From NCBI GenBank assembly GCA_048939995.1, contig JBHLOY010000011.1, forward strand, positions 32,001 to 96,000: a stretch of 64,000 nt of DNA, read 5' to 3'. This DNA is from Promethearchaeota archaeon. Its GTDB lineage: Archaea; Asgardarchaeota; Lokiarchaeia; Sigyniarchaeales; SOKP01. Below, piece after piece: positions 5,612-32,300 of this stretch. The notes beneath the pieces are model-generated. The model was not told where the DNA came from, searched no databases, and saw only the letters and a list, made by a program, of their open reading frames with translations. Position 1 is the stretch's first letter, and the number at the start of each line of letters is the position of its first letter. The position numbers and the translations under genes were made by a program.

Positions 5612-7069
5612 ATGTGGATTAGTAATGTCATCATTTTAGGGTGTTTTGTAGGCGTAGTTCTTCTAATTTTAACAAATAAATTAAACAGAGCAATCGCAGC
5701 TTTACTAGGCGCATTAATTGCATTTTTTACATTAATATTTATTGAAGATCTAGCTTTTCCAATAATAGTAGAATTTCTATTTGGGAGTCCGCCTCCAGGG
5801 GGAGATAATTTTGTTAATTTACACTCTCTAATTTTAATATTAAGTATGATGATTATAGTTCAAATTGCTCATGAAGCAGGATTGTTTCAATTTATTTCAA
5901 TAAGTTTAATAAAATTAACTGGTGAGAAACCAATTTATATTCTAGTAATTTTTTCAATTATAACAGTTATTCTTTCTTCAATTTTAAACAATATCCTAAC
6001 TGTTATCATTTTGATTCCCTTGATAATTACTGTTTCTCGTATTTTAAGTGTAAATCCATCTCCATATATCCTCACTCAAGCGATTTTAGTAAATATTGGA
6101 GGAACTTTTTTTTCCATCTCATCAATACCTAATATCTTAATAACCAGTTATGCACAAATCTCATTTATAGATTTTTTTTTAAACGTGGGCATAATTTCAT
6201 TATTTACATTTCCTCTAACTTTACTCTTTTTCATTTTTCTTTATAAGAAGGATTTGGAGGTGCCTACTGGGGGTTTTGAAATTTTAAAAGAATTTAATAT
6301 CTGGAATTTTGTACAAAATAGAGTCCTCTTATATAAATCAGCATTTGCTTTAGCCATTACTCTTACTCTTTTCATTGTTATACCTCCCTCACTTATTTCA
6401 ATTGACATTATTGCTCTAACGGTAGCAATAATATTGATAATTACTAGTAAATTGAATGCTAAAGTTATAATTGGAAAAATAGATTTTGAATTATTGCTAT
6501 ATCTTCTCGGAATTTTTATTATCTCAGGAGCTTTAGAATATACGGGAATATTAGATTTATTGGGAGCGTGGATGTCAACCATTGTGGGAGGGGATCCTTT
6601 AAGTCAAATCTTAATTATAATATGGTTTTCTGGATATTTGAGTAGTAATATTGATAATATTCCTATTACTAAAGTATTAATCCCTGTTATAAGCAACATG
6701 CCAGATATCCCTTCGCTTGATAATATAAATCAACCTTATTATAGTCTTGCTCTTGGAGCAAATTGGGGAGATAACTTGACTCCTATGGGTGATAATATAC
6801 TGGTTGCTAATATCGCTGAACAAAATAAACGCCCAATTAGTATGAAACAATTCTTTAAATTAGGATTCTTTACAACAAACTTTCAATTGTTAATAGTCTC
6901 TCTCTATTTTACTTTACTCTACCAATTATTTACAGGAGTTCTTATTATTTTGACAATCTTTTCTGCAATGCTAATCCTTTATCTATTTCAAAAAATATCT
7001 TCGAAAAAAGGAGAAATATCAAAGATTAATCGATTAATCACAAAAATTAGGAATTTTATTATTAAATAA
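5612..7069 (+). CDS. ArsB/NhaD/SLC13 family permease
   Basis: About 12-13 TM segments; LSSILNN, NIGG...SIPN, SSNIDNIP and GANWGDNLTPMG motifs. Confidence 0.85.
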   Translation: MWISNVIILGCFVGVVLLILTNKLNRAIAALLGALIAFFTLIFIEDLAFPIIVEFLFGSPPPGGDNFVNLHSLILILSMMIIVQIAHEAGLFQFISISLIKLTGEKPIYILVIFSIITVILSSILNNILTVIILIPLIITVSRILSVNPSPYILTQAILVNIGGTFFSISSIPNILITSYAQISFIDFFLNVGIISLFTFPLTLLFFIFLYKKDLEVPTGGFEILKEFNIWNFVQNRVLLYKSAFALAITLTLFIVIPPSLISIDIIALTVAIILIITSKLNAKVIIGKIDFELLLYLLGIFIISGALEYTGILDLLGAWMSTIVGGDPLSQILIIIWFSGYLSSNIDNIPITKVLIPVISNMPDIPSLDNINQPYYSLALGANWGDNLTPMGDNILVANIAEQNKRPISMKQFFKLGFFTTNFQLLIVSLYFTLLYQLFTGVLIILTIFSAMLILYLFQKISSKKGEISKINRLITKIRNFIIK

Positions 7070-7153
7070 TAGCAAAATCATTGAATAAGTTTTACCACTA
7101 GCAATTTTTAGAAAAACGAAATTGTTTTCTTAAGTGAAAAATTCCTTAAACCA

Positions 7154-9454
7154 ATGTATAATGAGGAATTTAAATTTAAAGATAGAACTATTGATCTGGT
7201 AGAAACAGAACAATTAGATTCTTCCTTTAAAATAAAATCATATAAAGATAAATTACAATTGATGATCCAAAAGCAAATTCCTCAAAAAAAGATTAAGGTA
7301 GTTATTGAGCATTTCTTTTTAAAAAGTAAACTAATATCTGAGAAAACTAAAGCGTCTATATCGAAGATAATTTACTCCCAAGTTGATCGTATCATTATCG
7401 TTTTCACGAAATCTGGAAAAGATATAATCTATAATCGTGAGAAACTAATTCAAAATTATGGTTGGTTTTTCTATATTGAAAAGCCAGAGAAGAGAAAAAA
7501 AGAAAGTAAGAAAAAAGGAATAAAAGACGAAGAGAAAACTCTTAGTACAGAAACATTCTTTTATAATAATCATTCAATAATACTTAAAGAAAAGAGTAAT
7601 ATGCGCTCTCTTTATAATACAAAAGAATACTTTTATTACAAGAAAATCTTGAATTCAAAAGAAATCATCCAAATGCCGATCAAAGATGTTCTAGATGATT
7701 TTTTTCTCGAAAATGACAAAGTACCCGTTAAAGAAAAAGAATCTATAAAGAAAATAATTTATTATCAAGAAGAGAAAGTAATTGTCTTCAAATCCTTAAT
7801 TGGAGATATAATGTATGAAAATCTTAAACAACTTGTCAAAAAATATGGTTGGTATTTTTATATTACGGGAGTACCTGTAGGTGAGAGTGAACTCTCCATT
7901 GCTATTGATAAAATAGAAAAAAGATATGATAATACATATTTTAATAATGTATCTCTTGTTGATGGATTAAATAATTCCGAGGATATATGTCTAACTATTT
8001 ATCCTATTGTACTTAAACCAAATCACAATTGCCACATCTTGGGATTAGGAAATTTAAATATTTTACTAGATTGTGGATTAACAGAGCCTAATGAGGAAGA
8101 AAAAATTGAAGGGGACTTAAGATATATAGAGTTCTATTTGAAAAATTATTATAATTTAATAGAAGAAGAAAAAAATTTTGAGAACCAAGAAATTGATAAT
8201 AAAAAGATAATAAAGGAACATAATAAAAACAACATTAAACCTCCTAATGAACCTAAAATTGATGCGATATATATTTCTCATAGTCATTTCGATCATGTAT
8301 CTGGTTTAAAAGAATTGATTAAACGTTATCCTGATATACCTATCTTATGTTCAAGGATCACTCTTGATTTATATCTACTTCGGGACTCTAATTTCTTAAA
8401 GCAAGAATCACAGAATGAAATTGAAGAAGATGATTATAAAAACATTATAAGGAATGTTATTTACGTCGAAAATGGTACAAAATTAAAATTTAAGGATAAA
8501 GGATGTTATCTCTCTTTTTATCATGGAGGTCATATGCCTGGAGCTTTAATGATTCTGGCAAAGGTAAAAGATTTTAGATTTCTATACACGGGTGATTATA
8601 CTTATTATGATATTACCCCCTTTGCTGGCACCAGAAGATTTCTAGGACAACTCTCTAGACCTATAGATTATCTTCTCATTGATGGAACTAGCGCTCGTGA
8701 AGATTTTGGTAATTTATCAGATCAATTTCATAGCCTTATTCTCTTCTTAGAGCAAAAAGCAGAATATGAAGATAACGTACTAATTGGAGCAGATCCTTCA
8801 AGTCTGGCGATTACATTTATGTTGATTTTTTGGAGGTATTTTAGAAAACTACAACTAAGAAGAGATTTTAAGAAACGCCCGAATATATACGTCGACATGA
8901 TGGTTCGCAAAAACATCCAAGTTATTAACCATAGATATGAATATATATATGGACCAATCTCCAATTTGATTCGTGAAAAAGCAAATCCATTTAATAGTAT
9001 TAAGTTTAGATGGTTTAATCTTGAAGATTTAGACTTTTTAAGAGAGAAAAATAATATCATTATATCCCATCCTCCTGATCTTTCTTATGGAATTATCAGG
9101 AACATTATAAACATCATTGGCCGCAATCCGCATAATCTGGTATTTCTGGCAGGATCTGTCAATGAAAAACCTGGTGAGGATCTTATTAATGGAAGTAATG
9201 AAATAGTTTTCTCAGAAACATGGAGAGTACCTTTTCGAGCATTATTGATTAATACGTTTGTACCATCTCTGAATATTAAACTACATGCAGATAAAAATCA
9301 ATTAACTGAGATGATAAAATATCTTGAACCGAAACATGTATGCTTTTTTCATCAATCCGCGAAAAACCTTGTTGAAGTTGCTGAATATGTAAAACAATTA
9401 GGTGTTGAGAAAGTATCTCTCCCTAAGAAAAGAAAGCTTTCGATAATAAATTAA
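7154..9454 (+). CDS. Metallo-beta-lactamase / beta-CASP ribonuclease-like protein with a duplicated N-terminal domain
   Basis: LLDCG, SHSHFDH, GGHMPG, YTGDY, IDGT, LHAD and FFHQ motifs. Confidence 0.8.
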   Translation: MYNEEFKFKDRTIDLVETEQLDSSFKIKSYKDKLQLMIQKQIPQKKIKVVIEHFFLKSKLISEKTKASISKIIYSQVDRIIIVFTKSGKDIIYNREKLIQNYGWFFYIEKPEKRKKESKKKGIKDEEKTLSTETFFYNNHSIILKEKSNMRSLYNTKEYFYYKKILNSKEIIQMPIKDVLDDFFLENDKVPVKEKESIKKIIYYQEEKVIVFKSLIGDIMYENLKQLVKKYGWYFYITGVPVGESELSIAIDKIEKRYDNTYFNNVSLVDGLNNSEDICLTIYPIVLKPNHNCHILGLGNLNILLDCGLTEPNEEEKIEGDLRYIEFYLKNYYNLIEEEKNFENQEIDNKKIIKEHNKNNIKPPNEPKIDAIYISHSHFDHVSGLKELIKRYPDIPILCSRITLDLYLLRDSNFLKQESQNEIEEDDYKNIIRNVIYVENGTKLKFKDKGCYLSFYHGGHMPGALMILAKVKDFRFLYTGDYTYYDITPFAGTRRFLGQLSRPIDYLLIDGTSAREDFGNLSDQFHSLILFLEQKAEYEDNVLIGADPSSLAITFMLIFWRYFRKLQLRRDFKKRPNIYVDMMVRKNIQVINHRYEYIYGPISNLIREKANPFNSIKFRWFNLEDLDFLREKNNIIISHPPDLSYGIIRNIINIIGRNPHNLVFLAGSVNEKPGEDLINGSNEIVFSETWRVPFRALLINTFVPSLNIKLHADKNQLTEMIKYLEPKHVCFFHQSAKNLVEVAEYVKQLGVEKVSLPKKRKLSIIN

Positions 9455-9534
9455 TTTATCTAAATTAAAGATAATCATTAAAAGTTTAATTTAATAATTC
9501 TTATTTAGATTAAATACAAATAAAGTGATTCTCT

Positions 9535-9912
9535 ATCTATTCAGAAAAAGTTTTAGATCATTTCAAAAATCCTCGAAACATGGGAGAAATGAAGGATGCA
9601 GATGCAATTGGCAAACATGGTAATCCTGTTTGTGGCGATTTGATGTACATATATATCAAGGTAAAGGAAGAAGGTGGAAAGGAAATATTAGAGGATATTT
9701 CTTTCCAAACATTTGGATGTGCTGCGGCTATAGCAACCTCATCGATGATAACTGAGTTAGCAAAAGGTAAAACCCTAGATGAAGCCATAAGGATAACTAG
9801 AGACGATGTGGCTGAGTCATTAGATGGACTTCCTCCTATCAAATTACACTGTAGTAATTTAGCTGCTGATGCTTTACATGATGCGATTGAAAAGTATCGA
9901 AAGAATAAATAG
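9535..9912 (+). CDS. iscU: Fe-S cluster scaffold protein IscU/NifU-N
   Basis: GNPVCGD, FQTFGCAAA and KLHCSNLA motifs. The conserved N-terminus YSEKVLDHFKNPRN lies upstream of ATG 9580, implying a start at ATC 9535. Confidence 0.9.
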   Translation: MYSEKVLDHFKNPRNMGEMKDADAIGKHGNPVCGDLMYIYIKVKEEGGKEILEDISFQTFGCAAAIATSSMITELAKGKTLDEAIRITRDDVAESLDGLPPIKLHCSNLAADALHDAIEKYRKNK

Positions 9913-14496: not shown

Positions 14497-16809
14497 TTAC
14501 GCAAAAATATCTATTTCTTTTTTTGGAAAAATAGCAAAAATCTTAGATATTGATTTTCCAGATAATAACTTCTCTTGAATTTCAGAATAATTTGGAAAAT
14601 ACTCATGCAAAATTTTATAAATATTTTTCCATTGTCGTTGCTTTTCGGTTCTACCTTCTAATCGTTTTCTTATTTTAGAAAATTGAGCTTTTGATTTCTT
14701 CCTTTTAAGATTCCTTATAAATTGTTTTACTATTTCCATCTTTTCTTTTTCAAATTCTTTTGGTCTAAAATTAGCATATGAATAAGCCAAAACCTCATCT
14801 GAAATGGGAGAGAAACTGATAATTTTATCCTCAGGCTCATTGGGATTTTTTAAGAGTCTTAATTCAATATTTTGTTCATTAATAGTCTCAAGTATTGGGT
14901 AAAGTTCTCCAGGTGTAATTTTTGTTTTTAACTGAATTTCTGAAGCTATTTCAGATATGGGAAATTGGAATTTTGGGTATTTGTCTTCATTTTCCATTCG
15001 ATAAATGTATTCATTCTTTAAGATATCAATAATGGAATCCTTTAAAGAGTCTGGAACATCTTTTTCTGTAAAAGAAATTATTGATTCTTTTTGTTTTTTC
15101 TCAGTCACCCTTTCTTCTCTTAGTTTCTTGCTATATGTACTTGTAAGTGAGGATACAAAAATATCTGAAGCTTTATCTTGTTCTGAGCCTTTATTTAACT
15201 TAAATAAATCCGGAGATTTTTTTTTCATTGTTTCATATAATCTCTCAGATAAGTAAGATTTTGCTTTTTTCTGTGCTATTTCCTTCTTATCGAATTTTTC
15301 TATAACTGATACAAAATCTATAAATTTTTGAATCACACCATAATCATCCTTCACCTTTCTAATGAGAACGTCGATATCACCATCAACTAATTCATTAATA
15401 AGTGAATAAATAGCATTTTTAGGGAGATTCGTTGCTTTTATTAACTCTCGATCCATAATTTCAATAGGATAAGCTTCCCCCCTTCGGATATATTCACTTT
15501 TTAATAACTTGTATATGATTTCCATTTTTTCCTCTTCTCTATTAATAGTTTCTTTTTGTAATCGAATAAACATAGAAGTTTCATGTGGTTTTATATAATA
15601 TCCTAATAGAGTAAAACCTAGAAATAAAATCATAAGAATTGAAACAACATATTTATCAAACATTAAAAAATTTCCGATAATGCTCATTTCTTGGTTGGAA
15701 ATTTGGGCTTCTAATCCAAAGCGAGTTAATGTTTGAGCTACAACGCATCCTAAGATCAACATTATCAACCCATCTCTCTTAAACACAAAGATTTGCCATC
15801 CAAGAGATCTCCCTAGTTTTAATATGATCCTATATAAAAATAGCATAGAAATTATAAATTCAAAAATAAAAATAAAGGAAACTGTAGAACTAGTAGCACC
15901 AACTTTAGCTTTTAAAGCGTCTATAGTTTCTGGTCTTAATATTAAGAAAATACTTACCTGAAATATTTGAAAGAAGAAAATAAAGAAAACAATTAATGAA
16001 AAAGTATAATTATCATACACTCCTGCTCTTTTTGTTTCTGCCTTTCTACGAGTGAATATAAATTCAAAGAAAATGAATAATAGTGTCATTATAAGACTGA
16101 AATAAATCAATGGCATTACTAGTCTCATTTCTGTTTGATATACTTCAACAGCTTCTTGAGGAGCTGTGGATCCTAGAAAGTCTAAAGATAGAAATACTAG
16201 TAAGAGTCGATAAAACAAAGCTAATAAAATTAATGAACCTACAATTAAATAAGGAGAGATTCCAGCTAAAAATTTTCGCGTTGTTGAATATTTTGCTATA
16301 AGTTTTGCTTCTAATCTCGTAGCGAATTTTCTGGAATACATATAAAACCTAGCACTCAGTAAAATCAGCCAAATTGTAGATAACAGAAACAAATAAGTCA
16401 TAAAGTTTAAGTTTGTTGAAAATAGATATAGAAAAAGCAAATAAAATATAACTCCTGCTCCTATATAAATAATCAATTGCTTAATCGCCGAATGTTCTTC
16501 AAAAATGAAATGTCTTATCTTATTATGACTGTAAAGAAAAGATAAAAGAATAAATAAAGCAACGATAGTATTTCCAATTAGGAATACTTGTTCAAAAAGT
16601 AATGGAAATGTTATTTCGGATATATTCATTAAAATTAATAATAGTAAAGATATTAAAATAAACATACTATAAATTCCTAAAAATTTTTTACTGAAAGCAT
16701 AAGATTTAGGAGGTTCCTTTCCTTCAACATAAATCTCCTTAATGAATAATCTATTGTAAATTGGTTTTAACTTCTTTCTAATGTTAAGCAGTATCCGTTT
16801 AGATTTCAT
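14497..16809 (-). CDS. Polytopic membrane protein with a cytoplasmic C-terminal region containing two winged-helix-like repeats
   Basis: About 11-12 hydrophobic helices in the first 410 aa; repeated I..ILK.EYI.R...[YF]PI..[MI]..E[LI]...T motif in the tail. Confidence 0.7.
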   Translation of the reverse strand: MKSKRILLNIRKKLKPIYNRLFIKEIYVEGKEPPKSYAFSKKFLGIYSMFILISLLLLILMNISEITFPLLFEQVFLIGNTIVALFILLSFLYSHNKIRHFIFEEHSAIKQLIIYIGAGVIFYLLFLYLFSTNLNFMTYLFLLSTIWLILLSARFYMYSRKFATRLEAKLIAKYSTTRKFLAGISPYLIVGSLILLALFYRLLLVFLSLDFLGSTAPQEAVEVYQTEMRLVMPLIYFSLIMTLLFIFFEFIFTRRKAETKRAGVYDNYTFSLIVFFIFFFQIFQVSIFLILRPETIDALKAKVGATSSTVSFIFIFEFIISMLFLYRIILKLGRSLGWQIFVFKRDGLIMLILGCVVAQTLTRFGLEAQISNQEMSIIGNFLMFDKYVVSILMILFLGFTLLGYYIKPHETSMFIRLQKETINREEEKMEIIYKLLKSEYIRRGEAYPIEIMDRELIKATNLPKNAIYSLINELVDGDIDVLIRKVKDDYGVIQKFIDFVSVIEKFDKKEIAQKKAKSYLSERLYETMKKKSPDLFKLNKGSEQDKASDIFVSSLTSTYSKKLREERVTEKKQKESIISFTEKDVPDSLKDSIIDILKNEYIYRMENEDKYPKFQFPISEIASEIQLKTKITPGELYPILETINEQNIELRLLKNPNEPEDKIISFSPISDEVLAYSYANFRPKEFEKEKMEIVKQFIRNLKRKKSKAQFSKIRKRLEGRTEKQRQWKNIYKILHEYFPNYSEIQEKLLSGKSISKIFAIFPKKEIDIFA

Positions 16810-16938: not shown

Positions 16939-17250
16939 TTGAAACTTTTAAAAATATTCAAAAATAATAATAATATGAGCATGGAAAACCAGCAAGATAA
17001 AGATACGATCTTAAAATTTGTCAAACAAGCAATTGAGATGCTCTGTGAAAAAAATATTTCTGAGGTAGTTATACTTTCTTCTTATAAAATTAACTCTATT
17101 CTAAAAGAAAATTATGGAGTTGATATTAGAGTTGATAAGATCGGCAGAATTTTGAGTAATATCGCCGAAAGAAATCAATTAAAAAGATTAAACACTAACA
17201 TACCAAAATACAAGTTAAAAATTTCTAAACTTTCATCATTGCAATTTTAA
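16939..17250 (+). CDS. Small basic winged-helix-like protein
   Basis: SSYKINSILKENYGVDIRVDKIGRILSNI pattern; probable start at ATG 16975 or 16981. Confidence 0.6.
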   Translation: MKLLKIFKNNNNMSMENQQDKDTILKFVKQAIEMLCEKNISEVVILSSYKINSILKENYGVDIRVDKIGRILSNIAERNQLKRLNTNIPKYKLKISKLSSLQF

Positions 17251-17261
17251 AAATAGATTTC

Positions 17262-18635
17262 CTATTTTAATTGGCGAAAATCAGATATAACCTTTTGAAG
17301 GCGTTCAATTAATTCTTCAATCTCTTTATACTTTTCTCTAATTGGATTAGAATCTAAATTAAGATCTTCAATCTCTTTATTCAAACTTGCGGTGAACTTT
17401 GAGCTGAGTATTTTATTTTCATTAATCATATTCTCAGAGAGATTATTCATATTTTTATAAACTTCATTAATAATATCTGAAGATTTAAGCACTAAGGGGC
17501 TAATATTAGACTCTGTCTGTTTGATATTATATAGTTTGACCTCTTCATAAGATATTTTTTCTTTTAGATTCTCTACGAGTTCCTGCAAATTCTTTTCGAT
17601 AATAATTTTAATCTCCTCAGAAATCGTTTCAAATGTCTTTGAAATGTCTACTGTAAACTCTTCTTGGGCTTTGATTCTTCTGTTAATATATTCTGAGACG
17701 TTTTTAATGAATACATTTGAAATCTCAGTAAAACTTCGGTCAAAATAAATCTGTATATCTTCAAGACCTTTTTCAATAGAATTTTTCATTTGACTAACAC
17801 TGCTTCGAATATATTCGGTACCTTTTAACGATCCATTGCGAATATCAATCATCCAACGAGTCAATTGTTCTTTGTAGGCGCCTATGAAGGATTCGGCAAA
17901 TTTTGAGGTTCCTTCCTTAAACCCTGAAAAAACTGGTTCGATTTGCGTATTGAATTCATCCAAATCGCCATTTATAGCAACTTCCACTTTTGGTATTTCT
18001 TGAAGTTCTTCAACTGAAGGTTTTCTAATTTCTTCAAATTCATTGATAATAATTGGAGTTTTTCTTTGAGTGTCTTCCACAAGTTCTTTTATCCATTTAT
18101 AGAAATCTAAGGTTTGAGGAATTTCTAACTCATATTGAACTCTCAAATATTCACTATCGGTTCCTTTTGATAAATTTTTCAATCTAAAAATTTCAAATCC
18201 AAAATTATTTTCTATATTCAGTAAGGAACAATCAAAAATTATGATAAATCCATATGGATTTTTTTCATTTTGGAAATATAATTGATTACTTTTGTCTGCA
18301 TGAGAAAGGAAAAACCCTCCTTTTAATCTCGAATGGTACCATCCAATAATTTTAAGATTAGTAGTAGATACTCTCTCCTCGATCTGCATAATTTTTTCAT
18401 GCATTTCCTGGGAAAATCCTAATTCTGCTATATCTCCATGGGATACGGGAATAACATTTAAAATATTAAGTGTTTTTTCTATTGTTTCCCCGATACATAT
18501 TCCCAAAACCTCTTGGTTTTCATCCAATGATTCATTTGAAAATCTTGCTATGTGAGTAAGCATTTTTCTGAAAGCATCATTTTTAATGAACACTTTCCAA
18601 TCGCTTGCTACTTCTATTTGCTTTTCATTTGACAG
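17262..18635 (-). CDS. MPN/JAB domain protein with a degenerate JAMM motif (MPN-) plus a long helical/coiled-coil tail
   Basis: QEVLGICIG...IIGWYHSRLKGGFFLSHAD: the second Zn-ligand His is replaced by Arg. The frame extends upstream of GTG 18593 to CTG 18635. Confidence 0.8.
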   Translation of the reverse strand: MSNEKQIEVASDWKVFIKNDAFRKMLTHIARFSNESLDENQEVLGICIGETIEKTLNILNVIPVSHGDIAELGFSQEMHEKIMQIEERVSTTNLKIIGWYHSRLKGGFFLSHADKSNQLYFQNEKNPYGFIIIFDCSLLNIENNFGFEIFRLKNLSKGTDSEYLRVQYELEIPQTLDFYKWIKELVEDTQRKTPIIINEFEEIRKPSVEELQEIPKVEVAINGDLDEFNTQIEPVFSGFKEGTSKFAESFIGAYKEQLTRWMIDIRNGSLKGTEYIRSSVSQMKNSIEKGLEDIQIYFDRSFTEISNVFIKNVSEYINRRIKAQEEFTVDISKTFETISEEIKIIIEKNLQELVENLKEKISYEEVKLYNIKQTESNISPLVLKSSDIINEVYKNMNNLSENMINENKILSSKFTASLNKEIEDLNLDSNPIREKYKEIEELIERLQKVISDFRQLK

Positions 18636-18650
18636 TTTATAACACTCTCA

Positions 18651-20096
18651 CTATTTTAATTCTTTTTTTAGGTCTCTAATTGTATTATGAAGATTTTTCT
18701 TTTCATTCTCTAACTTTTCGATTTTATTTAGAACTGGACTTTTAGACCCCTCAAGAACTAATATAGCTGCTTTAAGATCAGCTAGAACCTTTTTCAAATC
18801 CTTGTCTAGATCAGAAAAGATCGTTTGAATATTTAAAATTCTTTTCCTAAAGTTACCTAAAATTATTTCTTGATTTTCTTCAATTGCTCCTTTAATTCTA
18901 CTCTTAGTTGGTTCGATCATATTATTAATATTTTCTATTTTATTGTAATTTTCCTCTAAATCTTTTAATATTGATTCATTAGTCTTATGAATTTCATCCA
19001 AATCTTCCAAATTATTATTAAATTTATTTAACATTTCAGTTATCTTAGGTAGAAACTTAAGATCGATTCCTTCATGTATTTGTTTCATAAGATTTTCCTT
19101 AAAAGCATCAATTTGTTGTTTCATGTTAGTAAAAATCTCATCAAGATCATCAAGTTTATCATCAATATAGAAATCTAATCCTTTCAACTTATCTTGTAAT
19201 GAGAAATTATATGACTTTTGAAGTCTAGTGATCCCCCCACTTAAATTTTCTTTAAGTTGGATTAGATCATTCCTTATTTGTGAAGTATTATAATATGTTT
19301 TTTTTATAATTTCTTGACTCCATAAATTAAGAATTTGAATTAGAGGCTCAATAGATGAATCGATAAATATAGAAAAACTTTCTTTAAGATTGTTCAATAG
19401 AACTGGGATTGATATTTCTGGGATTTTGCTTTCTAACTGTTTCTGCTCAGGAAAAAAGATATCCCCAAATAATTCTGTCGTTTCATTTAATTCAAGAATA
19501 GGTGGCTCTTTTGAGTAGATATTATTTATAAGATCAACTATTTTCTCGTAAAATTCAAAACTATCTGGAGGTTCGACTATCGCTTTAACTTCATAATATT
19601 TAGAGTTTAAGCCCTTTGAAGGGTCTAATAATCTGAAAACTCTGAAACCTAAATCACCTGATTTTTCTAAGAAAGCATGATCAAATACAATTCCTAATCC
19701 ACTAGGATTTTTATCTTGCCAAAAAAGCTGGTTAAAGATATCAGTACTAGAGAAAAAGATTCCCAGATTGGGATGTGAATGATACCATCCTACAGTAAAC
19801 CAATTTTTATCACCATGTTCCTCCCAGATTTGCCTATCAATTTCACCAAAAGCACCAAGTTGTTCTGGGGAAAATTTGACCTCTATAGAACCACCATGAG
19901 ATATAGGGATAATATCTTCCACTATAACGTCTTTAATTTCTCCTTCACCAGTTTGATACCCTATTAACATGCCCATAACTTCTTTATATTCATTTACTGC
20001 TTGTGTTTTAGATCCAAATCGAAGAACATGGACTAACATTTTATAATAGGCCATTGGCTTGATAGTAACAATACTAGCGTCTGTAATTTTGCCCAT
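18651..20096 (-). CDS. JAMM/MPN+ metalloisopeptidase (Rpn11/CSN5-like) plus a long helical/coiled-coil tail
   Basis: KEVMGMLIG and GWYHSHPNLGIFFSSTD give a complete E...HxH-x7-S-x2-D motif. Confidence 0.88.
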   Translation of the reverse strand: MGKITDASIVTIKPMAYYKMLVHVLRFGSKTQAVNEYKEVMGMLIGYQTGEGEIKDVIVEDIIPISHGGSIEVKFSPEQLGAFGEIDRQIWEEHGDKNWFTVGWYHSHPNLGIFFSSTDIFNQLFWQDKNPSGLGIVFDHAFLEKSGDLGFRVFRLLDPSKGLNSKYYEVKAIVEPPDSFEFYEKIVDLINNIYSKEPPILELNETTELFGDIFFPEQKQLESKIPEISIPVLLNNLKESFSIFIDSSIEPLIQILNLWSQEIIKKTYYNTSQIRNDLIQLKENLSGGITRLQKSYNFSLQDKLKGLDFYIDDKLDDLDEIFTNMKQQIDAFKENLMKQIHEGIDLKFLPKITEMLNKFNNNLEDLDEIHKTNESILKDLEENYNKIENINNMIEPTKSRIKGAIEENQEIILGNFRKRILNIQTIFSDLDKDLKKVLADLKAAILVLEGSKSPVLNKIEKLENEKKNLHNTIRDLKKELK

Positions 20097-20221: not shown

Positions 20222-20851
20222 TTAATGCGGAAGTTTTCCACCACAATATGGACAATATTTCCAATCTAAATCTTTTCCGCAATGAGGACAGAATATTGAT
20301 GGACCTTCTTCAGCTTTAGGTATAGATGGCAATTCTCTAGAGGTTTTAATTGTTTCAGCTCTTCTTTCTGCTTCTTCTTGCTTCTTGTAAATCATTCGTT
20401 CTTTAAACGCTTGACGTTTTTCTTCATCTAATTCTTGGTTGCCCTTCGTCGCCTCTTGCTTCACCCATCCTACAGATTGAGGTCTCTTTATTTCGCTTTG
20501 TGGAACTTTCTCTAATTCTATCTTTTTAGTTTCTTTCAGAGGAGCCATTACTTTCTTTTGTTCCTTTTTCTCAAGAGCTTGCTTTACTAATGCTTGCGTT
20601 GTTTTCATAACTTGGTGCGGATTTATATTTGGAATAGCAACAGTGCGTAAAACCCAACCTACGATGAGATTCTGATTAGGAAAGCCTCCATCTGCTACAT
20701 CTTCATCTTTATAAACATATGACTCAATAACATTTTGTCCTTTTAATAATCGTGAGGCCCACATTTTATTGATAAGCCCTAATTGAATCCTATAGGAGGT
20801 TCCGGGTATTCCCAACTGACTTGTTAATGGTTCAAAACCTTTATCTGCCAT
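20222..20851 (-). CDS. Hypothetical protein with a charged linker and C-terminal double zinc ribbon
   Basis: CPHCG...YCPYCG at the C-terminus. ATG 20851 preferred over the ORF-track TTG 20860. Confidence 0.75.
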   Translation of the reverse strand: MADKGFEPLTSQLGIPGTSYRIQLGLINKMWASRLLKGQNVIESYVYKDEDVADGGFPNQNLIVGWVLRTVAIPNINPHQVMKTTQALVKQALEKKEQKKVMAPLKETKKIELEKVPQSEIKRPQSVGWVKQEATKGNQELDEEKRQAFKERMIYKKQEEAERRAETIKTSRELPSIPKAEEGPSIFCPHCGKDLDWKYCPYCGGKLPH

Positions 20852-21058
20852 TATAATCAAATGATCTTAATTCTGTCAGAATCAGAAATAATCTGATACT
20901 TGTAATAATATAATGGTAAATTATCAATTTAAATAATTTTATGTTTTAATAGACAAAATGGATATAGATATCATTTGATTTAAGAAAAAAATAGACATAA
21001 ATATAGGTGGTAGTATAAACATATCAATTAGAAAATAAATTTATCTTATGATGTAAAA

Positions 21059-22012
21059 ATGACTGTGATCATTCCGAGAGAAGCTTATTTGACAGTTGTG
21101 GCAGCTTCGGTCAGATTTGCGAATCGAAAAATTTCCCAGAATGATTGGTTAGAGGTTAATGGAGTGTTTATTGGAGAACTTAAAGGAGATGACGTAATAA
21201 TAAAAGAAGCTTATCCTATAATGCACCAAAAATTAGACAAGACTGCAGTAATCGATAAATACGAATGGTCTGCAGAAGATAATATCTCATATACTTTAAT
21301 CGATGAAGAAGCTTTCTCAAGAGGTTTGTTCACAGTCGGCTCTTGGCATTCCCATCCCGGCTTCAAAGTAATGTTAAGCCATATTGACATTAGACACCTA
21401 GCTTTCCATCAAGGAGCAAACCCGAATTATTTTACTTTAGTATTTAATCCAAAGAGATTAATGAGACAAGTAGAAATGCCCGAAAAAAAAGGAGATCCAG
21501 AGATTCAACTAAAAGATGATCCTGGATTTAAAATTTTTAGTTTAGATGATATAAATAGGGGAATTGAAGCCTCTTATCATACAGTGCAGTATCATATAGA
21601 AGGTTATGATTCAATGGAACAGTTAGTTAATTTGAGTCAAAAATTTGTCGTTGAAATAACTAATTTATTCCCCAAGGAGAATCTCTTTAAAGTATATGAA
21701 AATTTCATTATGGAAAAAACACAAAATTTAGATTCTCTTCTTTTAGGCACTGAAGAATATCTAAATACATTGGCAAGGAAAGGAGAATCAAATCGAGTTT
21801 CTGAAGTTTTAGAGAATCAAGCAAAAGAGATTAGAAAATTCATTGCTGAAGCTTATATTAAGATTGACAATATTAAACAATTCATGAACTATTTAGAATT
21901 TAAAGAGAGAGATACTATAATCCCTAAAATAAAAGAACTCTTTTCAAAATGGGATGAGAAAATCTCCACTATTGATTTAAAATTAAATAAGTTAGCAAAA
22001 CAGTATAAATAA
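21059..22012 (+). CDS. JAMM/MPN+ metalloisopeptidase with a helical C-terminal domain
   Basis: LEVNGVFIG and GSWHSHPGFKVMLSHID. Confidence 0.85.
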   Translation: MTVIIPREAYLTVVAASVRFANRKISQNDWLEVNGVFIGELKGDDVIIKEAYPIMHQKLDKTAVIDKYEWSAEDNISYTLIDEEAFSRGLFTVGSWHSHPGFKVMLSHIDIRHLAFHQGANPNYFTLVFNPKRLMRQVEMPEKKGDPEIQLKDDPGFKIFSLDDINRGIEASYHTVQYHIEGYDSMEQLVNLSQKFVVEITNLFPKENLFKVYENFIMEKTQNLDSLLLGTEEYLNTLARKGESNRVSEVLENQAKEIRKFIAEAYIKIDNIKQFMNYLEFKERDTIIPKIKELFSKWDEKISTIDLKLNKLAKQYK

Positions 22013-22134
22013 GTTCCCAAAATTTTTAAAAACCGATTTTTAATCTAAGGATTAAAAGGAAAATCTTTATTTTGGTTGATATTATTTTTAATCAAAAGAA
22101 TGCTTAACTAAATTATTTATTATACAGAATTAAA

Positions 22135-24339
22135 ATGAAAAAGATTAATTTCCCATTTACTGCGATACTTGGTCAAGACAGGATGAAAATGGGACTCATA
22201 CTTAACGTTATTGATCCACAAATAGGTGGGATTTTATTATCAGGCCAGCAAGGAACGGGAAAGTCAACCGCGGTTAGGAGTTTAGTTGAAGTAATGCCTG
22301 AGATTGATGTTGTTAGAGATTGTGCTTTTTCATGTGATCCAAAATCAAGTATTGATGATTTGTGTGAAGAATGTCGCAAAAAAAAGGAAAAAAACAAAAT
22401 AGAAATAAATACACGCGAAATGAAGCTAGTGAACCTCCCACTTGGTGTAACAGAAGATATGGTTTGCGGTAGCCTTTCTATTGATAAAGTATTAACCGAA
22501 GGAATAAAAAGTCTTCACCCTGGGTTACTCGCTAAAGCAAACAGAGGTATTCTTTATATTGATGAAATTAATCTTTTACAAGATCATATAGTTGATACTT
22601 TATTGGATGCCGCATCATCAGGGGTAAATATTATCGAAAGGGAGGGAATTTCAGTCATGCATCCTTCAAGTTTTGTACTAGTTGGCTCAATGAACCCAGA
22701 AGAAGGCGAATTAAGACCACAAATTGCTGATCGCCTTGGATTAGAGGTCAAAATCAAAGCTCCAAGAGATCCTAAGTTAAGATCAGAAATCACACGCAGA
22801 GTAATTGAATTTGATGATAACCCAAAAGATTTTATCAAGCAATATGAAAAGGAGGAAAAAAAATTACGAGAAAAGATTAAACAAGCACGTGAAATTTTAA
22901 AGGAGGTAAAGGTTCCTTCCTCAGTTTTTGAATTTGTGTCAATGATTGTAAATGAGTTAGAAATATTTTCTCAAAGAGCAGATATTACTTTCATACGTTG
23001 TGCTAGAGCTAATGCCGCTTTCAATGGTAGGAGGGAAGTGGTTGAAGAAGATCTAAATATTGCAATGGATTTAGTCTTTGAACATAGAATCCAGTCACTA
23101 CATTATGAAATGACGCCCACAGAAATTAAAGCAAAAATTGCAGAGGTTTATGGAAAAATACAGAAAGCCTATGAGGATCCAAAAGCTTATAAACCGAATA
23201 AAAATACAGAGGGACCATTAAAACATGATGACAATATTCAAAAAGAATTTAAACGTCAGTCAGTAGATCCAAAAAAGGTGAAAATTCCAGAAACTAAAGA
23301 ACAGAAATTACCACCCCCTAAATATCCTGATAATAGAAAGAGAAATCCGGCTCCAGCAGGAGGTTGGAAAGTCAAAAATATTCCTTTTGATGAATTAGAT
23401 TTAAAATTTTTTGACAATGAAGTCGAGGATTTACCCTTAATATACAAGATGGAGCAAAAAATGAGTTCTATCTTGGACAATATCCGTAAAGAACGAAAAA
23501 TTTCCGATTATGGTGGACGTGGTATAGGAAGACGTATCAAAATATCGTCTTCTCAAAAAGGAAAGTATATATCATATCGAACTCCCGTGAATAAGCCCAA
23601 GAGTCTTGCTTTAGATGCTACCATCAGGAATTACTTAAAAAATACTATTTACAACCAAACAGATATTGAATTTCCAATAAAGTTTGATATATATGATTTG
23701 ATGGATAAAATATTTGAATATCGTTCTCCTCTTGTCTTATTTTTTGTACTCGATAGTTCAGCCTCAATGTATTATGTAATCAAACAGATGACCGATGTAA
23801 TTTTATCATTGCAAAAGGAAGGATATAGAAAACGTGATAAAATTAGTTTAATTATATTTCGAGGTAAGGAAGCAATTGTATTTGAAAAACCTACAGTTTA
23901 CTTTAAAAAAGCTTTAATAAAACTAAAAAATATCGAAGGTAAATCATATACACCTATGGCGGCTGCACTTACAAAATGTATTAAATTAATAAATGCCGAA
24001 AAATTGAAAAATAGGAATATAATCCCTGTGATTTTCATATGTTCAGATTGCGGAGCAAATATTTCTGCTAAGAATCCTGAATTAATTGCTCAGATACAGA
24101 GTGATTATACAATAATAATTAACGAGTTGAAGGAATTAACGAAATCACTGTCAAAAAAAGGGGTCCATCTTGTAGTCCTAGAACCCAAAAAGAGTTATGC
24201 TACTCAGGCCTTAGGAGTTAATACATATGCTGCCGATAAAATTAAAAAAAATTTCAAAGAGTTTGGGAAAGCACAAATTTTTCAATTTGATAAATATAAC
24301 CCAGAAAGATTAATATTAGAATTAAAACGAATATTGTAA
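22135..24339 (+). CDS. Mg/Co-chelatase ChlI/ChlD-like AAA+ ATPase fused to a vWA domain
   Basis: FPFTAILGQ, GQQGTGKST, GILYIDEINLL, MNPEEGELRPQIADR; Pro-rich linker; vWA MIDAS DSSAS plus TPMA. Confidence 0.9.
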   Translation: MKKINFPFTAILGQDRMKMGLILNVIDPQIGGILLSGQQGTGKSTAVRSLVEVMPEIDVVRDCAFSCDPKSSIDDLCEECRKKKEKNKIEINTREMKLVNLPLGVTEDMVCGSLSIDKVLTEGIKSLHPGLLAKANRGILYIDEINLLQDHIVDTLLDAASSGVNIIEREGISVMHPSSFVLVGSMNPEEGELRPQIADRLGLEVKIKAPRDPKLRSEITRRVIEFDDNPKDFIKQYEKEEKKLREKIKQAREILKEVKVPSSVFEFVSMIVNELEIFSQRADITFIRCARANAAFNGRREVVEEDLNIAMDLVFEHRIQSLHYEMTPTEIKAKIAEVYGKIQKAYEDPKAYKPNKNTEGPLKHDDNIQKEFKRQSVDPKKVKIPETKEQKLPPPKYPDNRKRNPAPAGGWKVKNIPFDELDLKFFDNEVEDLPLIYKMEQKMSSILDNIRKERKISDYGGRGIGRRIKISSSQKGKYISYRTPVNKPKSLALDATIRNYLKNTIYNQTDIEFPIKFDIYDLMDKIFEYRSPLVLFFVLDSSASMYYVIKQMTDVILSLQKEGYRKRDKISLIIFRGKEAIVFEKPTVYFKKALIKLKNIEGKSYTPMAAALTKCIKLINAEKLKNRNIIPVIFICSDCGANISAKNPELIAQIQSDYTIIINELKELTKSLSKKGVHLVVLEPKKSYATQALGVNTYAADKIKKNFKEFGKAQIFQFDKYNPERLILELKRIL

Positions 24340-24378
24340 ATATCACAAAATTTCTTAAAAGTCAAAAATTTTTATCAT

Positions 24379-25638
24379 TTGATGGAAAAGAAAGGGAACT
24401 CTGTCCTAATAGTCGGTTTTAACACTCGTCCTCTTGCTTATTCTCTCTATAAAGCTGGTTATATAGTATACGTAGTAGATTTTTTTGGGGATTTAGACTT
24501 ATTTCCTTATATTAAAGATGGTTCAATTATAATAAAAGAATTAGGGACTTCATATAAACTAATCCAAAAGAATTACCATCGCTACTTAACGGAATTTACA
24601 ATTAAGCTATTAGAGAGAAATCCTAAAATAGATAATTTAATAATTGCGAGCGGTTTAGATGATCAAATTGAAGAGCGTAATCAAATATTAAGAATAATCA
24701 GAGATAGAAATTACAAGATAAAGAATCTTAATAATGATATTATAAATATTAAAAATGCTCGCAATATCATAGAAGTAAATAAACTTTTAAAGGAAAAGGG
24801 TTACAAAGTTCCTATCACTGAACCATTTGAAAGTATAAACAAAATACCTCCTTCTATAACATTTCCTCTCATTTTTAAAAAAAGAAAGAGTTCTGGAGGT
24901 ATTAATGTGTATAAAATTGAAAATAAAGAAAAACTTATTTTTCTAATTAAAAATCTCGGGAGGAAAGAGTTTAAACCTTCGGATTGGTTAATACAAGAAT
25001 TCATTGAAGGAATTCCAGCTAGTTGTACAACAATTTCTAATGGAAATGAGACAAAAATAATTTCAATTAATCGTCAAGTTATTGGCTTAGACATTTTAAA
25101 CCCTCCTAAAGATTTTATGTATTGTGGAAATATTGTTCCTGGTAACTTCATATCAAGAGCTAAAAAATTAATTGCTGAGATATCTATTGCTTTAGCAAAT
25201 AGGTTAAGATTAAAAGGAATTAATGGGTTTGATTTCGTATTAAGAAGGCAATACCCTTACTTAATGGAAATAAATCCAAGGATTCCTGGTTCTATTAGCG
25301 CTTCAGAACATTCAATGGAACTTAATTTAATAGATTTACATATTAAAAGTTTTAATAAAAATTGTTGGAATGAAATTGTAGAGATATTAGATAACGCCAG
25401 CTACAAAAAATATGCAACTAAATTAATATATTTTGCTCCAAAAGAGGTGGATATCAATAAAATAACAAAAGTCAATCATCTCAAATACATTCACGATAAA
25501 ACTGACCCGATAAAAAGCATAATGCAAGGAGAACCAATATGTTCGATCTTATTTATAGAAAATTCATTTGCTAATTCCTTTTTTGGAGCATTAAAGATAG
25601 CAGATAATATAACTAAGATTCTATCACTTAATTATTGA
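24379..25638 (+). CDS. ATP-grasp domain protein (archaeal carboligase-like)
   Basis: VDFFGDLD, KKRKSSGG, QEFIEG, GINGFDF and MEINPRIPG. Confidence 0.8.
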   Translation: MMEKKGNSVLIVGFNTRPLAYSLYKAGYIVYVVDFFGDLDLFPYIKDGSIIIKELGTSYKLIQKNYHRYLTEFTIKLLERNPKIDNLIIASGLDDQIEERNQILRIIRDRNYKIKNLNNDIINIKNARNIIEVNKLLKEKGYKVPITEPFESINKIPPSITFPLIFKKRKSSGGINVYKIENKEKLIFLIKNLGRKEFKPSDWLIQEFIEGIPASCTTISNGNETKIISINRQVIGLDILNPPKDFMYCGNIVPGNFISRAKKLIAEISIALANRLRLKGINGFDFVLRRQYPYLMEINPRIPGSISASEHSMELNLIDLHIKSFNKNCWNEIVEILDNASYKKYATKLIYFAPKEVDINKITKVNHLKYIHDKTDPIKSIMQGEPICSILFIENSFANSFFGALKIADNITKILSLNY

Positions 25639-26358
25639 CTTAATTTTTGCTATATAAGATCCTAACTTTCTTTCGTCAGCTTCGGGTACCGCAATAGCAA
25701 GAACTCTCGTTTCATCTAATTCATGAATTATAATTGACCCATTCTCCCCACCAATTATGGAAAATTCTAAACTTGCCTCCAATAACACACTTGATAAATT
25801 ATATATCGCAGAAGTAATAGCTGAAAGGATTGGTTCGGGCATTGTCGATTGAATTTTAATTGGTAACCCATCTTTGGTTATAATTGCAATTACTAAGGCG
25901 TTCGGGATTGCTCTTTTTATAGCAACAAAAATTTCCTCTTTAATAAGATCAGAAGTTTCGATTATTGCAGAGATCTGAATCGCAAATTTTTTTAATGAAT
26001 TTATATATGAATCCAATCCTTCAAGTTCAGCTAATTCTCGGTTCAAATATGACATTAAGGCGATATTTTCGGTTAAAATCGAAACTATAATCCTCTTTTT
26101 TCCGGTAATGAGATTATAAGAGAGCCTTTGATTCAAAGAATCATGTAAAATTTTTGAGGAAAGGAAGACCATACTGCTACTTGCGGCAGAAATCTCTGTT
26201 TTGGTTAATGTTATATCTTTTTTGAATTTACTAGCAAGATGGGTTCCACCGTGAGAAGAGATGGAAATACCAAGTATCCCATGCTTTTCATCTATTTCTT
26301 TTTGAATTAATCTAATTAAATCAATTTCTAAATCATTACTTTTCGGTTCCGAACTCAT
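25624..26358 (-). CDS. Tandem (double) Roadblock/LC7 domain protein
   Basis: Two units of helix / beta-hairpin (GISISSHGG; IAIITKDGLPI) / helix (EISAASSS; ILSAITSAI) / three strands / helix. Confidence 0.75.
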   Translation of the reverse strand: MSSEPKSNDLEIDLIRLIQKEIDEKHGILGISISSHGGTHLASKFKKDITLTKTEISAASSSMVFLSSKILHDSLNQRLSYNLITGKKRIIVSILTENIALMSYLNRELAELEGLDSYINSLKKFAIQISAIIETSDLIKEEIFVAIKRAIPNALVIAIITKDGLPIKIQSTMPEPILSAITSAIYNLSSVLLEASLEFSIIGGENGSIIIHELDETRVLAIAVPEADERKLGSYIAKIKSIIK

Positions 26359-29344: not shown

Positions 29345-32300
29345 TTGAGTTCCATTAAAAAGTTGTCTAATTTGAATTTTTCCAGCTTATTAGGTGATGA
29401 TCAAAAATTAGTTTTCTTTGTAGGTGCTGGTTCATCAACTGATTCACCATCTTTAATGCCTAGTGCCCATGAAACAATGAAAACTCTTATTAAATTTGCA
29501 TGTTCTCAATCTGAAATAGAAAAAGTAACTCAGATTGAGGATTTGAGATTCGAAACATTGCTAGAAATTTTTTATGAAATCCTGGATAATGAACTGTCAT
29601 TAGCAGATTTGTATGTACAGAATAATATTCCGAATGTAGTGCATTTCTTTTTAGTAGAAATGGCTGAGAGAGGCCATTTTATAATGACAGCCAACTTTGA
29701 TTCCCTTATAGAGCATGCGATGATAAAAGCTGAGATTCAAAAGAAGAAAATAATTCCTGTTATAACTGAAAAGGACTATGAGAAGTATTATAACCCAGAA
29801 AAGTTGTTAAAAGGTGGAAAATATGCTATATACAAAATCCATGGTTCCCCGAAAAACATCATTACTGGAGAAGACACTAAAACTGCTTTCTTCAATACTA
29901 TAAGATTATTAGGACAAAATTTTGATAAAAGTAATTTACTACAATTAGAGCCATTTAAAGCTCAATTATTTGATTATATCTCAAGGGATCGAACTTTAGT
30001 AATATTAGGATACTCAGGGAAAAACGATTTTGATATTAGATCCACACTTAAAATAATGAAGTCTTTAAAAAATCTACTTTGGATAAATCATTCAGCAACA
30101 GATACTATAACGGAAGAAATTTATGAAATTGAGCCTAGCAAAAAAGCTATAAAAAAATTGGATGAATTGGACTCTTATTTATTAGAGATCAAACAACTAA
30201 ATGACTCAATTAATGTTTATAGAATGGATACTCACACAAGTAAATTATTAGAGAAATATTTAGAAAAGAAAGACTTAATACCTTCTGAAAAGTTTTCATT
30301 TGACTTAATAAAATGGCTTCAAGAGAATATTAAGAAACCAGATGAAATAAAGAAATTATATTTTACATATAAAATATATTACGAAACTAAAAGATATAAT
30401 GATTCTTTAAGGTGTTTAGAAAGAATTTATCGAATGGCAGAAGATGCAGGTGATGATTTATGGAAAGCCATATCCTTATTGAATATGGGAATTATAAATC
30501 GAGATCAAAAAGAATATGATAAAGCTCTTGATTGGCTAAAAAAGTCTCTTCAGGCACAAATTAAACTTAAAAATACCGAACAGAAAGTTGCAGTTTTTAA
30601 AAATATTGGAATAGTATATAGTAATTTAAGAAATTTTGATGAAGCATATAAATACTTAATGCAAGCTTTAAAGGCAAACGAAAAACTTAAAAACCTTTCT
30701 ACTAAGGCAGAAATAATCGATAATATTGGTTTAATATTTCAAAAACAAGGAAATTACAGCGAAGCTCTAAAGCAATTTGAAAGCGCATATAAAATTAATG
30801 AGAAGCTGTTAAATTTAAAGGAGAAGGCTTTAACTCTTAAAAGTATGGCTAAAGTATACTTAATAAAGGAGAATTATACAGAAGCATTAAAGTATTATGA
30901 AGAGGCTTTTCAAATCAATGATCAATTAGAAAATCTAAGTGAAAAAGGTGAAATACTGAATACTTTAGGGTATATCTATCACTTAAAAGATGATTCTCTG
31001 GTAGGTTTAGAAAAGTGTCATGAAGCCCTTGAGATATTCAATAAACTGCAAATTGTTGATGGAAGTATAAATTCACTACGAAATATTGGGATAATTTATA
31101 GAGATCAATGGAATTATATTAAAGCTTTAGAAAATTTCGAAGAAGCATATCAATTAGCAGAAGAAAATGGGAAAATGGTAAAGAAAGGGGAATTATCGAA
31201 TCAAATTGGTCTTATTTTTCAAAAACAGGATAAATTTACTGATGCCTTAGAATGGTTTGAAAATTCATTGGGAATTTTTGAAAAATTGGAAAATCTTAGC
31301 GGGGAGGTTGAAGTCTTAAAGAATATTGGTTTAATTTATAAAGATAAGAAAAACTTTTCAAAATCATTAACCATTTTTCAACAAACAATACAAATCTTCG
31401 AAAAATTAAAAGATAAAAAAGGGAAAGCAGATTATCTTAATGTTATAGGATTAATACACCTAGAGCAACGAAATTTTACAGAAACCTTGAGAAACTTTCA
31501 AGAAGCTTTAGATATCTATACAGAATTGAATAATCGTGAAGGAATTGCTGACACTTTAAGAAATTTAGGAATTTTCTATCAAGAACAAGCTAATTTTTCT
31601 GATTCCCTAAATAGATATAATGATGCATTGATGATATTCGAAGATTTAGAGTTAGTAGAGAAAAAAGCAGAACTTCTAAATAAAATTGGCACTATTTATC
31701 AGGATCAAGGAGATTATTTAGAAGCTGCTAAATTATTTAAAAAAGCATTTGAAATTTTTGATCAATCAAAGAGTTTAGAGGGTAAAATAGACACACTCCA
31801 TAATATTGGGTTAAATTTTCATTATCAAGGAGATGACACTTCTGCTTTGGAAAATTTAGATGAGGCCGTTAAGTTGTGCGAACAGATTGGAAATCTTCAA
31901 AAAAAATCGAATTGTCTTGTTTTTATTGGAAGCATCTATAAAGATCAGTGGAATTTTCTAGAAGCCTTAAGAAGATTTGAAGAAGCACTTTTAATTGTTG
32001 AACAACTAGGAAATCTCCAAAAACAACTTGAAATTTTAAATATAATTGGAAACATATACCAAACTCAAAAACATTATCCAGAAGCAATAAGAAGATTTCA
32101 AGAAGCTCTTTATGTAGCAGAGCAAATTGGAAATCTAGAAATAAAGGCAGATGTATTAAATAGTATTGGAGATATTTATTATGATGAAGAAAGTTATACC
32201 GAAAGTCTAAAATGGTTCGAAGATGCTCTCAAAATAGATGAACAACTAGCAAATCTAAAAGGTAAGTCAATACGCTTGACTAATATTGGTAATATTTATT

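Follow-up and report, generated by a model that had tools for sequence, protein, structure and literature searches.

A tandem pair of MPN-domain genes in one order of Asgard archaea: a putative JAMM enzyme and a paralogous partner with an eroding active site

Two adjacent genes, A and B, encode MPN-domain proteins in a 64,000-nucleotide stretch of DNA (the window; positions 32,001 to 96,000 of contig JBHLOY010000011.1, assembly GCA_048939995.1) from a Promethearchaeota archaeon of the Lokiarchaeia type. The A protein has a complete JAMM motif and the B protein a degenerate one. We found that A and B are paralogs in a tight, conserved operon, that the motif of A is invariant among its orthologs, and that the motif of B has been broken many times in proteins that nevertheless remain under selection. 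A preliminary description of this DNA had proposed an active/inactive heterodimer that might represent a pre-eukaryotic stage of the eukaryotic MPN pairs. Its observation was confirmed, and its interpretation is supported in part. We read A and B as an independently evolved version of the MPN+/MPN- type of pair.

Pairs of an MPN+ and an MPN- protein (Rpn11-Rpn8, CSN5-CSN6, BRCC36-Abraxas, eIF3h/f) are regarded as a hallmark of eukaryotes. In 2018, a structural study of an archaeal Rpn11 stated that the MPN+/MPN- organisation was not then known in archaea (PMC6043591), and no paper describing an archaeal pair was found in our full-text literature searches. The source genome (G000) is 3.75 Mb long and 98% complete, and the G+C content of the window is about 29%. 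Genes Z, A and B lie on the minus strand and are transcribed in that order; C and D lie on the plus strand. Sampled loci carry L-numbers, genomes G-numbers, families f-numbers and genera g-numbers.

The A-B gene pair and its distribution

The features of the pair, in window coordinates, are as follows.

18651..20096, minus strand: gene A, MPN+/JAMM protein of 481 residues (open reading frame (ORF); Pfam JAB, 45.3 bits; AlphaFold2 (AF2) model; Foldseek)
19959..19982, minus strand: in A, EVMGMLIG with the catalytic Glu39, invariant in the alignment of A orthologs
19740..19781, minus strand: in A, HSHPNLGIFFSSTD, the Zn-ligand part of the JAMM motif (H106, H108, S116, D119), in invariant alignment columns
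18636..18650, minus strand: A-B spacer of 15 nt with a GTGA-type ribosome-binding-like element (comparison of start regions with orthologs)
17262..18635, minus strand: gene B, MPN paralog with a degenerate JAMM motif, 457 residues from CTG 18635 (ORF; ortholog starts; Pfam JAB, 47.9 bits)
18489..18512, minus strand: in B, EVLGICIG with the retained Glu (E42), which is Gln in two other B lineages
18294..18335, minus strand: in B, HSRLKGGFFLSHAD, with Arg103 in place of the second Zn-ligand His (motif mapping)

Both proteins score above the Pfam JAB (PF01398) cut-off of 22.5 bits. Over 329 residues they share 31% identity (E = 2e-38), a similarity that reaches into their tails. Together with the ORFs and the ortholog starts, this identity confirmed two co-oriented paralogs 15 nt apart when B is read from CTG 18635. 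The preliminary description was also right about both motifs. That of A is complete, with E39 followed by H106-S-H108-P-x6-S116-x2-D119. In B (HSR-x7-S-x2-D), residues E42, H101, S111 and D114 are retained and only the second His is replaced, by Arg103, with the loss of a Zn ligand. Arg103 is encoded by AGA, at least two base changes away from CAY, and is thus not a single-base error. This codon, the presence of HSR in 19 database clusters and a ratio of nonsynonymous to synonymous substitution rates (dN/dS) well below 1 ruled out a sequencing error or a pseudogene. The source genome contains seven MPN genes, and B is the sole one with a degenerate JAMM motif.

The frame of B is open upstream as far as TGA 18648-18650. 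CTG 18635 aligns with the starts of the orthologs, which are TTG in the closest relatives (L008, L009) and ATG in L010, L012, L013 and L014; these orthologs are 463-471 residues long, and the same GTGA-type element precedes the B start in the window and in the orthologs. The common-start ORF, from GTG 18593, encodes 443 residues. Either the CTG at 18633-18635 is used, or the protein starts at GTG 18593 and is 14 residues shorter; the shorter form would trim the first strand of the MPN domain.

The distribution of the pair was examined by searching 201 genomes of the phylum with B and then 400 with A (threshold for A orthologs, E <=1e-40), and 40 loci were sampled for detailed comparison. Orthologs of A were found in 123 of the 134 genomes of the window's family (f1), in 4 of 14 and 1 of 1 genomes of sister families of the same order, and as one weak match in the same class; about 250 genomes of other Asgard families yielded none with this query. 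Of the 37 loci that have both genes, 36 place A immediately upstream of B with the same orientation, and the two are also adjacent in the sister families f2 and f28. The median gap across the 37 loci is 3 nt, with 36 of them between -19 and 48 nt and most at 0-12 nt or overlapping. In complete loci, a single member of the pair was never seen. The tandem arrangement, whose synteny across Asgard genomes the preliminary description had singled out as a check, is thus conserved, within one order.

Two loci depart from this arrangement. The sole split pair sampled is that of genome G144, where an insert of about 6 kb (L016:7826-13868) lies between A and B and both ORFs are open. In G250, from a sister family, a 923-residue open frame with a single TAG inside runs over the A match (G250:C57:7024-9729). 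B (7024-8325) there abuts A (8326-9729), and the long frame probably covers both genes.

Motif conservation in A and motif erosion in B

The six motif residues of A (EHHPSD) are intact in all 38 genomes and all 120 database representatives examined. The alignment of A has 50 invariant columns, all catalytic residues among them; that of B has 13, none of them a Zn ligand. Among 40 B orthologs, 9 have a fully intact motif, 4 more differ by Ser to Thr only, and in 27-31 one or more Zn ligands or catalytic residues are gone. The lesions vary with the lineage. Glu is changed to Gln in two lineages, the first His is replaced by Ser, Val, Ile, Leu or Cys, and Asp is replaced by Glu, Ala, Thr or Asn. 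The HSR of the window is a trait of the window's subclade, seen in 7 of the 40 sampled genomes and in 19 of 61 database clusters. On the B tree, His-to-Arg arose three times, in the window's subclade and in two other independent cases.

The preliminary description had named conservation of the His-to-Arg change in Asgard genomes as a check, and the change is not a conserved feature. HSH is kept in 19 of 39 sampled B orthologs, which nominally fulfils what it had named as refuting; many of these orthologs carry another lesion (E to Q, S to T). We rejected His-to-Arg as the defining change of B because it is specific to a subclade. With the tree rooted on the f2 sister-family copy and only losses allowed, there are 8-9 independent clades in which every member is broken, and one such clade holds two different lesions. 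Binary parsimony (intact or broken) with regain allowed gives only 3-4 changes. Regain of several catalytic residues was judged implausible, and the loss-only count was therefore used.

B is the fastest-evolving gene of the locus, with a median identity of 35% compared to 46% for A, 65% for Z and 80% for D. Its ORF is intact in the sampled genomes, and in well-diverged pairs its dN/dS is 0.11-0.24 (0.08-0.18 for A). These low ratios indicate that B is still a working protein. Since other B lineages have lost Glu, the first His, Ser or Asp, catalysis in B appears to be dispensable in general. The alignments and substitution rates thus indicate that B is selectively maintained and that its catalytic residues are dispensable. 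In the source genome, B is most probably inactive, as judged from the established role of two His and one Asp as Zn ligands in JAMM proteins, one of which is gone.

Among the sampled species, B forms a graded natural series from intact through singly damaged to fully dead beside an unchanging A. Such a series allows one to ask when and why catalysis by a partner turns dispensable, and whether a dead partner activates a live one.

A length change was also seen in the motif loop. In L018, L024 and L033, A has three extra residues in the spacer from HSH to Ser (HSHPLLFQHKIFFS). In the same three loci and in L046 and L047, B has one extra residue in this loop together with Glu to Gln. The loop changes of A and B match within the same lineage.

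Pairing, origin and substrates of A and B

We favour, with moderate confidence, the explanation that a translationally coupled Z-A-B operon supplies A and B as subunits of a single complex, in which A would be the enzyme and B a non-catalytic partner that arose by an order-specific duplication. A is predicted to be a zinc isopeptidase of the Rpn11/BRCC36/CSN5 type. B would have begun as an active enzyme whose catalysis became dispensable since A supplies it, and would have been kept for another role. Contacts between the MPN domains and between the long helical tails would join B to A, which B would position or regulate, as in the eukaryotic MPN+/MPN- pairs. B may also activate A; in the case of BRCC36, the pseudo-deubiquitinase partner switches the enzyme on (PMC4579573). 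The substrates would be ubiquitin-like proteins of the organism itself, as conjugates or in precursor form.

The AF2 model of A (mean pLDDT 76, pTM 0.44) consists of an MPN domain (residues 1-192), a low-confidence linker (195-240) and a helical region (242-480). The linker between the MPN domain and the helical tail of about 240 residues is 59 residues long, and this length is invariant. In B, the tail after W261 has about 197 residues. An MPN domain followed by a long helical tail, as the preliminary description had seen in each protein, was thus borne out. Foldseek searches with the A model returned BRCC36 from BRCA1-A and from BRISC first (6gvw_B, 5cw3_A), followed by CSN5, Rpn11 and the Rpn11 homolog of Caldiarchaeum subterraneum (CsRpn11). 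The matches to BRCC36, Rpn11 and CSN5 reach E = 2e-12, and the alignments with BRCC36 extend into the helix after the MPN domain. The resemblance to Rpn11 and BRCC36 that this check was meant to find is therefore present in A. By profile search, the tails of both A and B match amphipathic, apolipoprotein-like helices.

Complex prediction with full-length A and B, from alignments of our own, gave an ipSAE of 0.49 (runs of 0.51, 0.49 and 0.42), and the best of three controls gave 0.00. The runs share at least 48% of their contacts, and the pLDDT of the partners is at least 68. Of 80 solved complexes, 58 reach the mark of the tool, as do 2 of 110 mismatched pairs, but scores of 0.60 or lower belong to only 7 of those 80 and to both mismatches. 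These counts hold only roughly here, since the alignments were our own. The prediction lends weak support to an A-B heterodimer, and the tight coupling of the genes is a better argument for pairing than the score. The modelling that the preliminary description called for has thus put the pair above the mark, in a weak band and with hetero- and homodimers not separated. As to its active/inactive pair, an invariantly MPN+ protein A and a maintained protein B with dispensable catalysis stand, and the physical heterodimer is computationally less secure.

The origin of the pair was examined in a quick tree of non-eukaryotic MPN domains with SH-aLRT supports. A, B and C form clades with supports of 96, 95 and 99, respectively, and A and B group together with 90. 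The top 120 hits of a homolog search were Asgard A orthologs only. Because A and B are sisters, occur in one order and are both present in a sister family, the duplication appears to be old but order-specific. The A profile and the B profile rank solved proteins alike, with CsRpn11 first, then yeast Rpn11, BRCC36 and CSN5. CsRpn11 is the best sequence match to both (E = 1.3e-14 and 5.3e-14); Rpn11 is matched at about 1e-12 to 1e-13, and desampylase at about 3e-3. With the B profile the values are 5e-14 for CsRpn11, 6.5e-13 for Rpn11, 1e-10 for BRCC36 and CSN5, and 2.9e-5 for Rpn8. As B matches Rpn8 far worse than Rpn11, we infer that it is not an ortholog of Rpn8 or CSN6. Orthology with Abraxas is likewise not indicated, B being closer to active JAMM proteins and sister to A. 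A eukaryotic precursor was rejected on the A+B sister clade, the profile matches and the restricted distribution. The proposed pre-eukaryotic stage is accordingly unlikely for a pair confined to one order and a weak match in the same class, and the data fit an origin parallel to that of the eukaryotic pairs rather than ancestral to them.

The BRCC36-Abraxas and BRCC36-KIAA0157 (ABRO1) pairs, at the core of BRCA1-A and BRISC, likewise consist of an MPN+ enzyme and a paralogous MPN- partner, and helices C-terminal to the MPN domain, which A and B also have, take part in the pairing of BRCC36 with Abraxas (PMC4579573). However, A and B are each other's closest relatives, and orthology with the eukaryotic pair is unsupported. 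Their tails of about 200-240 residues are far longer than the helical bundle of BRCC36, and no BRCC45- or MERIT40-like partners were seen for A-B. Abraxas and KIAA0157 are fixed pseudo-enzymes, whereas the active site of B is still intact in some species. Rpn11-Rpn8 and CSN5-CSN6 also join an active JAMM protein to an inactive MPN paralog, but the A-B locus has no PCI-domain gene and is unlinked to proteasome genes. PF01399-like matches, which might have indicated PCI-domain partners, were found only on contigs 13, 22 and 28 and none on contig 7, with a model that also matches unrelated prokaryotes in controls. CsRpn11 (6fjv/6fju) is an archaeal, eukaryote-like JAMM protein with C-terminal helices like those of A and B. 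Unlike them, it is encoded by a single gene in an operon with ubiquitin, E1, E2 and E3, is active alone, crystallised as a homodimer and has no inactive paralog (PMC6043591); A and B form a tandem pair outside the ubiquitin operon and have long tails.

If the duplication was indeed separate, the eukaryotic "enzyme plus dead twin" design is also seen in the archaeal group closest to eukaryotes, which suggests that JAMM enzymes arrive readily at the MPN+/MPN- design in evolution. It also cautions that eukaryote-like features of Asgard genomes are not always ancestral. In a bolder form, a stalked heterodimer of deubiquitinase and pseudo-deubiquitinase would have been invented independently, with every stage of B decay (intact, without the Glu, without one His, without any ligand) preserved in living species, and would be tied through Z and the membrane protein to membrane or GTPase signalling. 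We regard this form as doubtful; if true, it would provide a natural experiment on the rise of allosteric pseudo-enzyme partners.

Several observations weigh against a complex of active A and inactive B that acts on ubiquitin-like conjugates, and we considered three other explanations along with them. A and B might be co-regulated but separate, with B serving as a non-catalytic binder or receptor for the tag handled by A or for a membrane or GTPase partner. Purifying selection on B without need of an active site would suit such a role. The complex score lies in a range where, by the tool's own account, a result that lacks a strong prior is wrong more often than it is right; moreover, the pass may reflect memory, as solved MPN-MPN heterodimers exist, and a paralog can pass for a true partner. 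The lengths of the tails, tried as a sign of zipping, gave no co-variation or co-evolution signal (r = 0.32): the B tail is fixed at about 197 residues (195-199 across f1, 191 in the f2 copy L045), whereas that of A varies from 219 to 277 (201 in L045). The insertion in L016 separates the two genes and leaves both open. However, the gaps of 0-12 nt and the overlaps agree with translational coupling, a usual feature of subunits made in stoichiometric amounts, and complete loci never have one member alone. To our knowledge, every characterised MPN- protein works bound to an MPN+ partner or scaffold. We consider separate proteins unlikely.

Alternatively, both proteins could be active, B still being a metalloprotease with a different substrate or linkage specificity in which another residue replaces the lost ligand. 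Nine of the 40 B orthologs keep every catalytic residue, and the pair in these species may consist of two active enzymes. The B protein of the window keeps Glu42, His101, Ser111 and Asp114, and the HSR subclade has a new His beside the Ser (SHAD), which is present in every HSR ortholog examined and in none of the other aligned B orthologs. Pseudo-enzymes with "migrated" residues are known (PMC10211241). Against this, the JAMM Zn ligands are two His and one Asp (PMC300881). The residue that follows the Ser on its helix should also face away from the Asp three positions on, and other B lineages have lost Glu, the first His, Ser or Asp without such a change next to it. An active B in the window is very improbable.

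The third alternative concerns the substrate. The pair may be real and yet act on another tag or protein, linked to the ATP-grasp and AAA+-vWA module or to small-GTPase or membrane machinery. Genes for ubiquitin, E1 and E2 are absent from the locus, and neither these nor RING genes lie near A-B. In the source genome, ubiquitin and E2 are encoded with a JAMM protein of their own in an operon on contig 23, and a second E2-like/MPN pair lies on contig 17. The conserved neighbours (C, the AAA+-vWA, ATP-grasp and roadblock genes, and Z, whose N-terminal domain is fused to Ras-family GTPases elsewhere) suggest other substrates or processes, and the tails resemble amphipathic helices of the apolipoprotein kind. 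However, the MPN domains are closest to the ubiquitin-specific CsRpn11, Rpn11, BRCC36 and CSN5 (1e-10 to 1e-14, compared to about 3e-3 for desampylase), and in genus g4 the Z-A-B-s103 core stays together with no C, D or ATP-grasp gene adjoining, so that A-B is not tied to that module. A substrate unrelated to ubiquitin seems to us improbable. For the A-B complex that we favour, ubiquitin-like conjugates are a plausible substrate because the genome has a ubiquitin/E2/JAMM cluster elsewhere; the tails, the neighbouring membrane protein, the roadblock gene and Z leave room for a membrane- or GTPase-linked role.

Neighbouring genes and other MPN genes

The other genes of the locus considered here are listed below; the finding on A and B in the preliminary description had named neither Z nor C.

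20222..20860, minus strand: gene Z, zinc-ribbon protein of about 209 residues (orthologs start at ATG 20849-20851)
21059..22012, plus strand: gene C, third MPN+ paralog, 317 residues, with a complete JAMM motif and a shorter helical tail (own clade, support 99)
22135..24339, plus strand: gene D, AAA+ (ChlI/BchI-like) plus vWA protein of the ChlD type, 734 residues (TIGR02442, 578.7 bits, below the cut-off of 779)
16939..17250, plus strand: s103, small conserved convergent gene of 103 residues, always next to B (ORF, locus comparison)
14497..16809, minus strand: M770, multi-pass membrane protein of 770 residues, a conserved neighbour (no family match)

The wider conserved block contains a P-type ATPase, an MFS transporter, the 770-residue membrane protein, the 103-residue gene, B, A and Z, and continues divergently past Z with C, the AAA+-vWA protein, an ATP-grasp ligase and a roadblock-domain protein. 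NCBIfam models gave no further annotation for A, B, C, Z, s103 and M770.

Z adjoins A upstream on the same strand, with a median gap of 222 nt, and its conservation greatly exceeds that of A and B. Its N-terminal domain of about 95 residues is nearly invariant and is followed by a charged linker and a C-terminal zinc ribbon (CPxCG...CPxCG). A profile search placed more than 100 clusters in the family of the N-terminal domain at E <1e-10, some with the domain behind a Ras-family GTPase and others with it standing alone (proteins noted: P0197, P0216, P0276). No Pfam or NCBIfam model covers this domain, and the structure Atlas gave only the cluster of Z itself. The AF2 model of Z (pLDDT 58.5, pTM 0.27) was too poor for a structure search.

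C lies 960 nt upstream of A, divergently on the other strand, and its motif is intact in 23 of 25 orthologs. In the orthologs of four genomes of genus g2 (L025:11662-11692; L026, L027, L030), an insert of 30-31 nt interrupts the JAMM motif between HSHPGF and KVMMSHID. The insert starts with an in-frame stop, ends with TAA and forms a hairpin stem with compensatory changes between genomes; it is missing in the window and in L022. It looks like a bulge-helix-bulge mini-intron. Folded as a single sequence, the L025 insert did not outscore its shuffles (z = 0.11), and the case for an intron rests on the position, the length and the hairpin changes across four genomes.

D, downstream of C, is 75-95% identical across the family and is context only with respect to the A-B unit. 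In the window, C, the AAA+-vWA gene, the ATP-grasp ligase (PF02655) and, on the opposite strand, the roadblock/LC7-domain protein form a conserved module at 21059-26358, possibly a separate tagging or remodelling system. At L015:1014-3259 two overlapping frames take the place of a single AAA+-vWA gene. This split and the 923-residue frame of G250 could reflect read-through, a frameshift, an intron or an assembly error.

Four further MPN+ genes of the source genome lie on contigs 37, 28, 23 and 17 (L003, L004, L006, L007). They comprise a protein with a coiled-coil tail (about 355 residues), one with a TPR-like tail (about 508 residues), the member of the ubiquitin/E2 operon and a 170-residue protein beside an E2-like gene. 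The source genome shows a marked expansion of MPN proteins.

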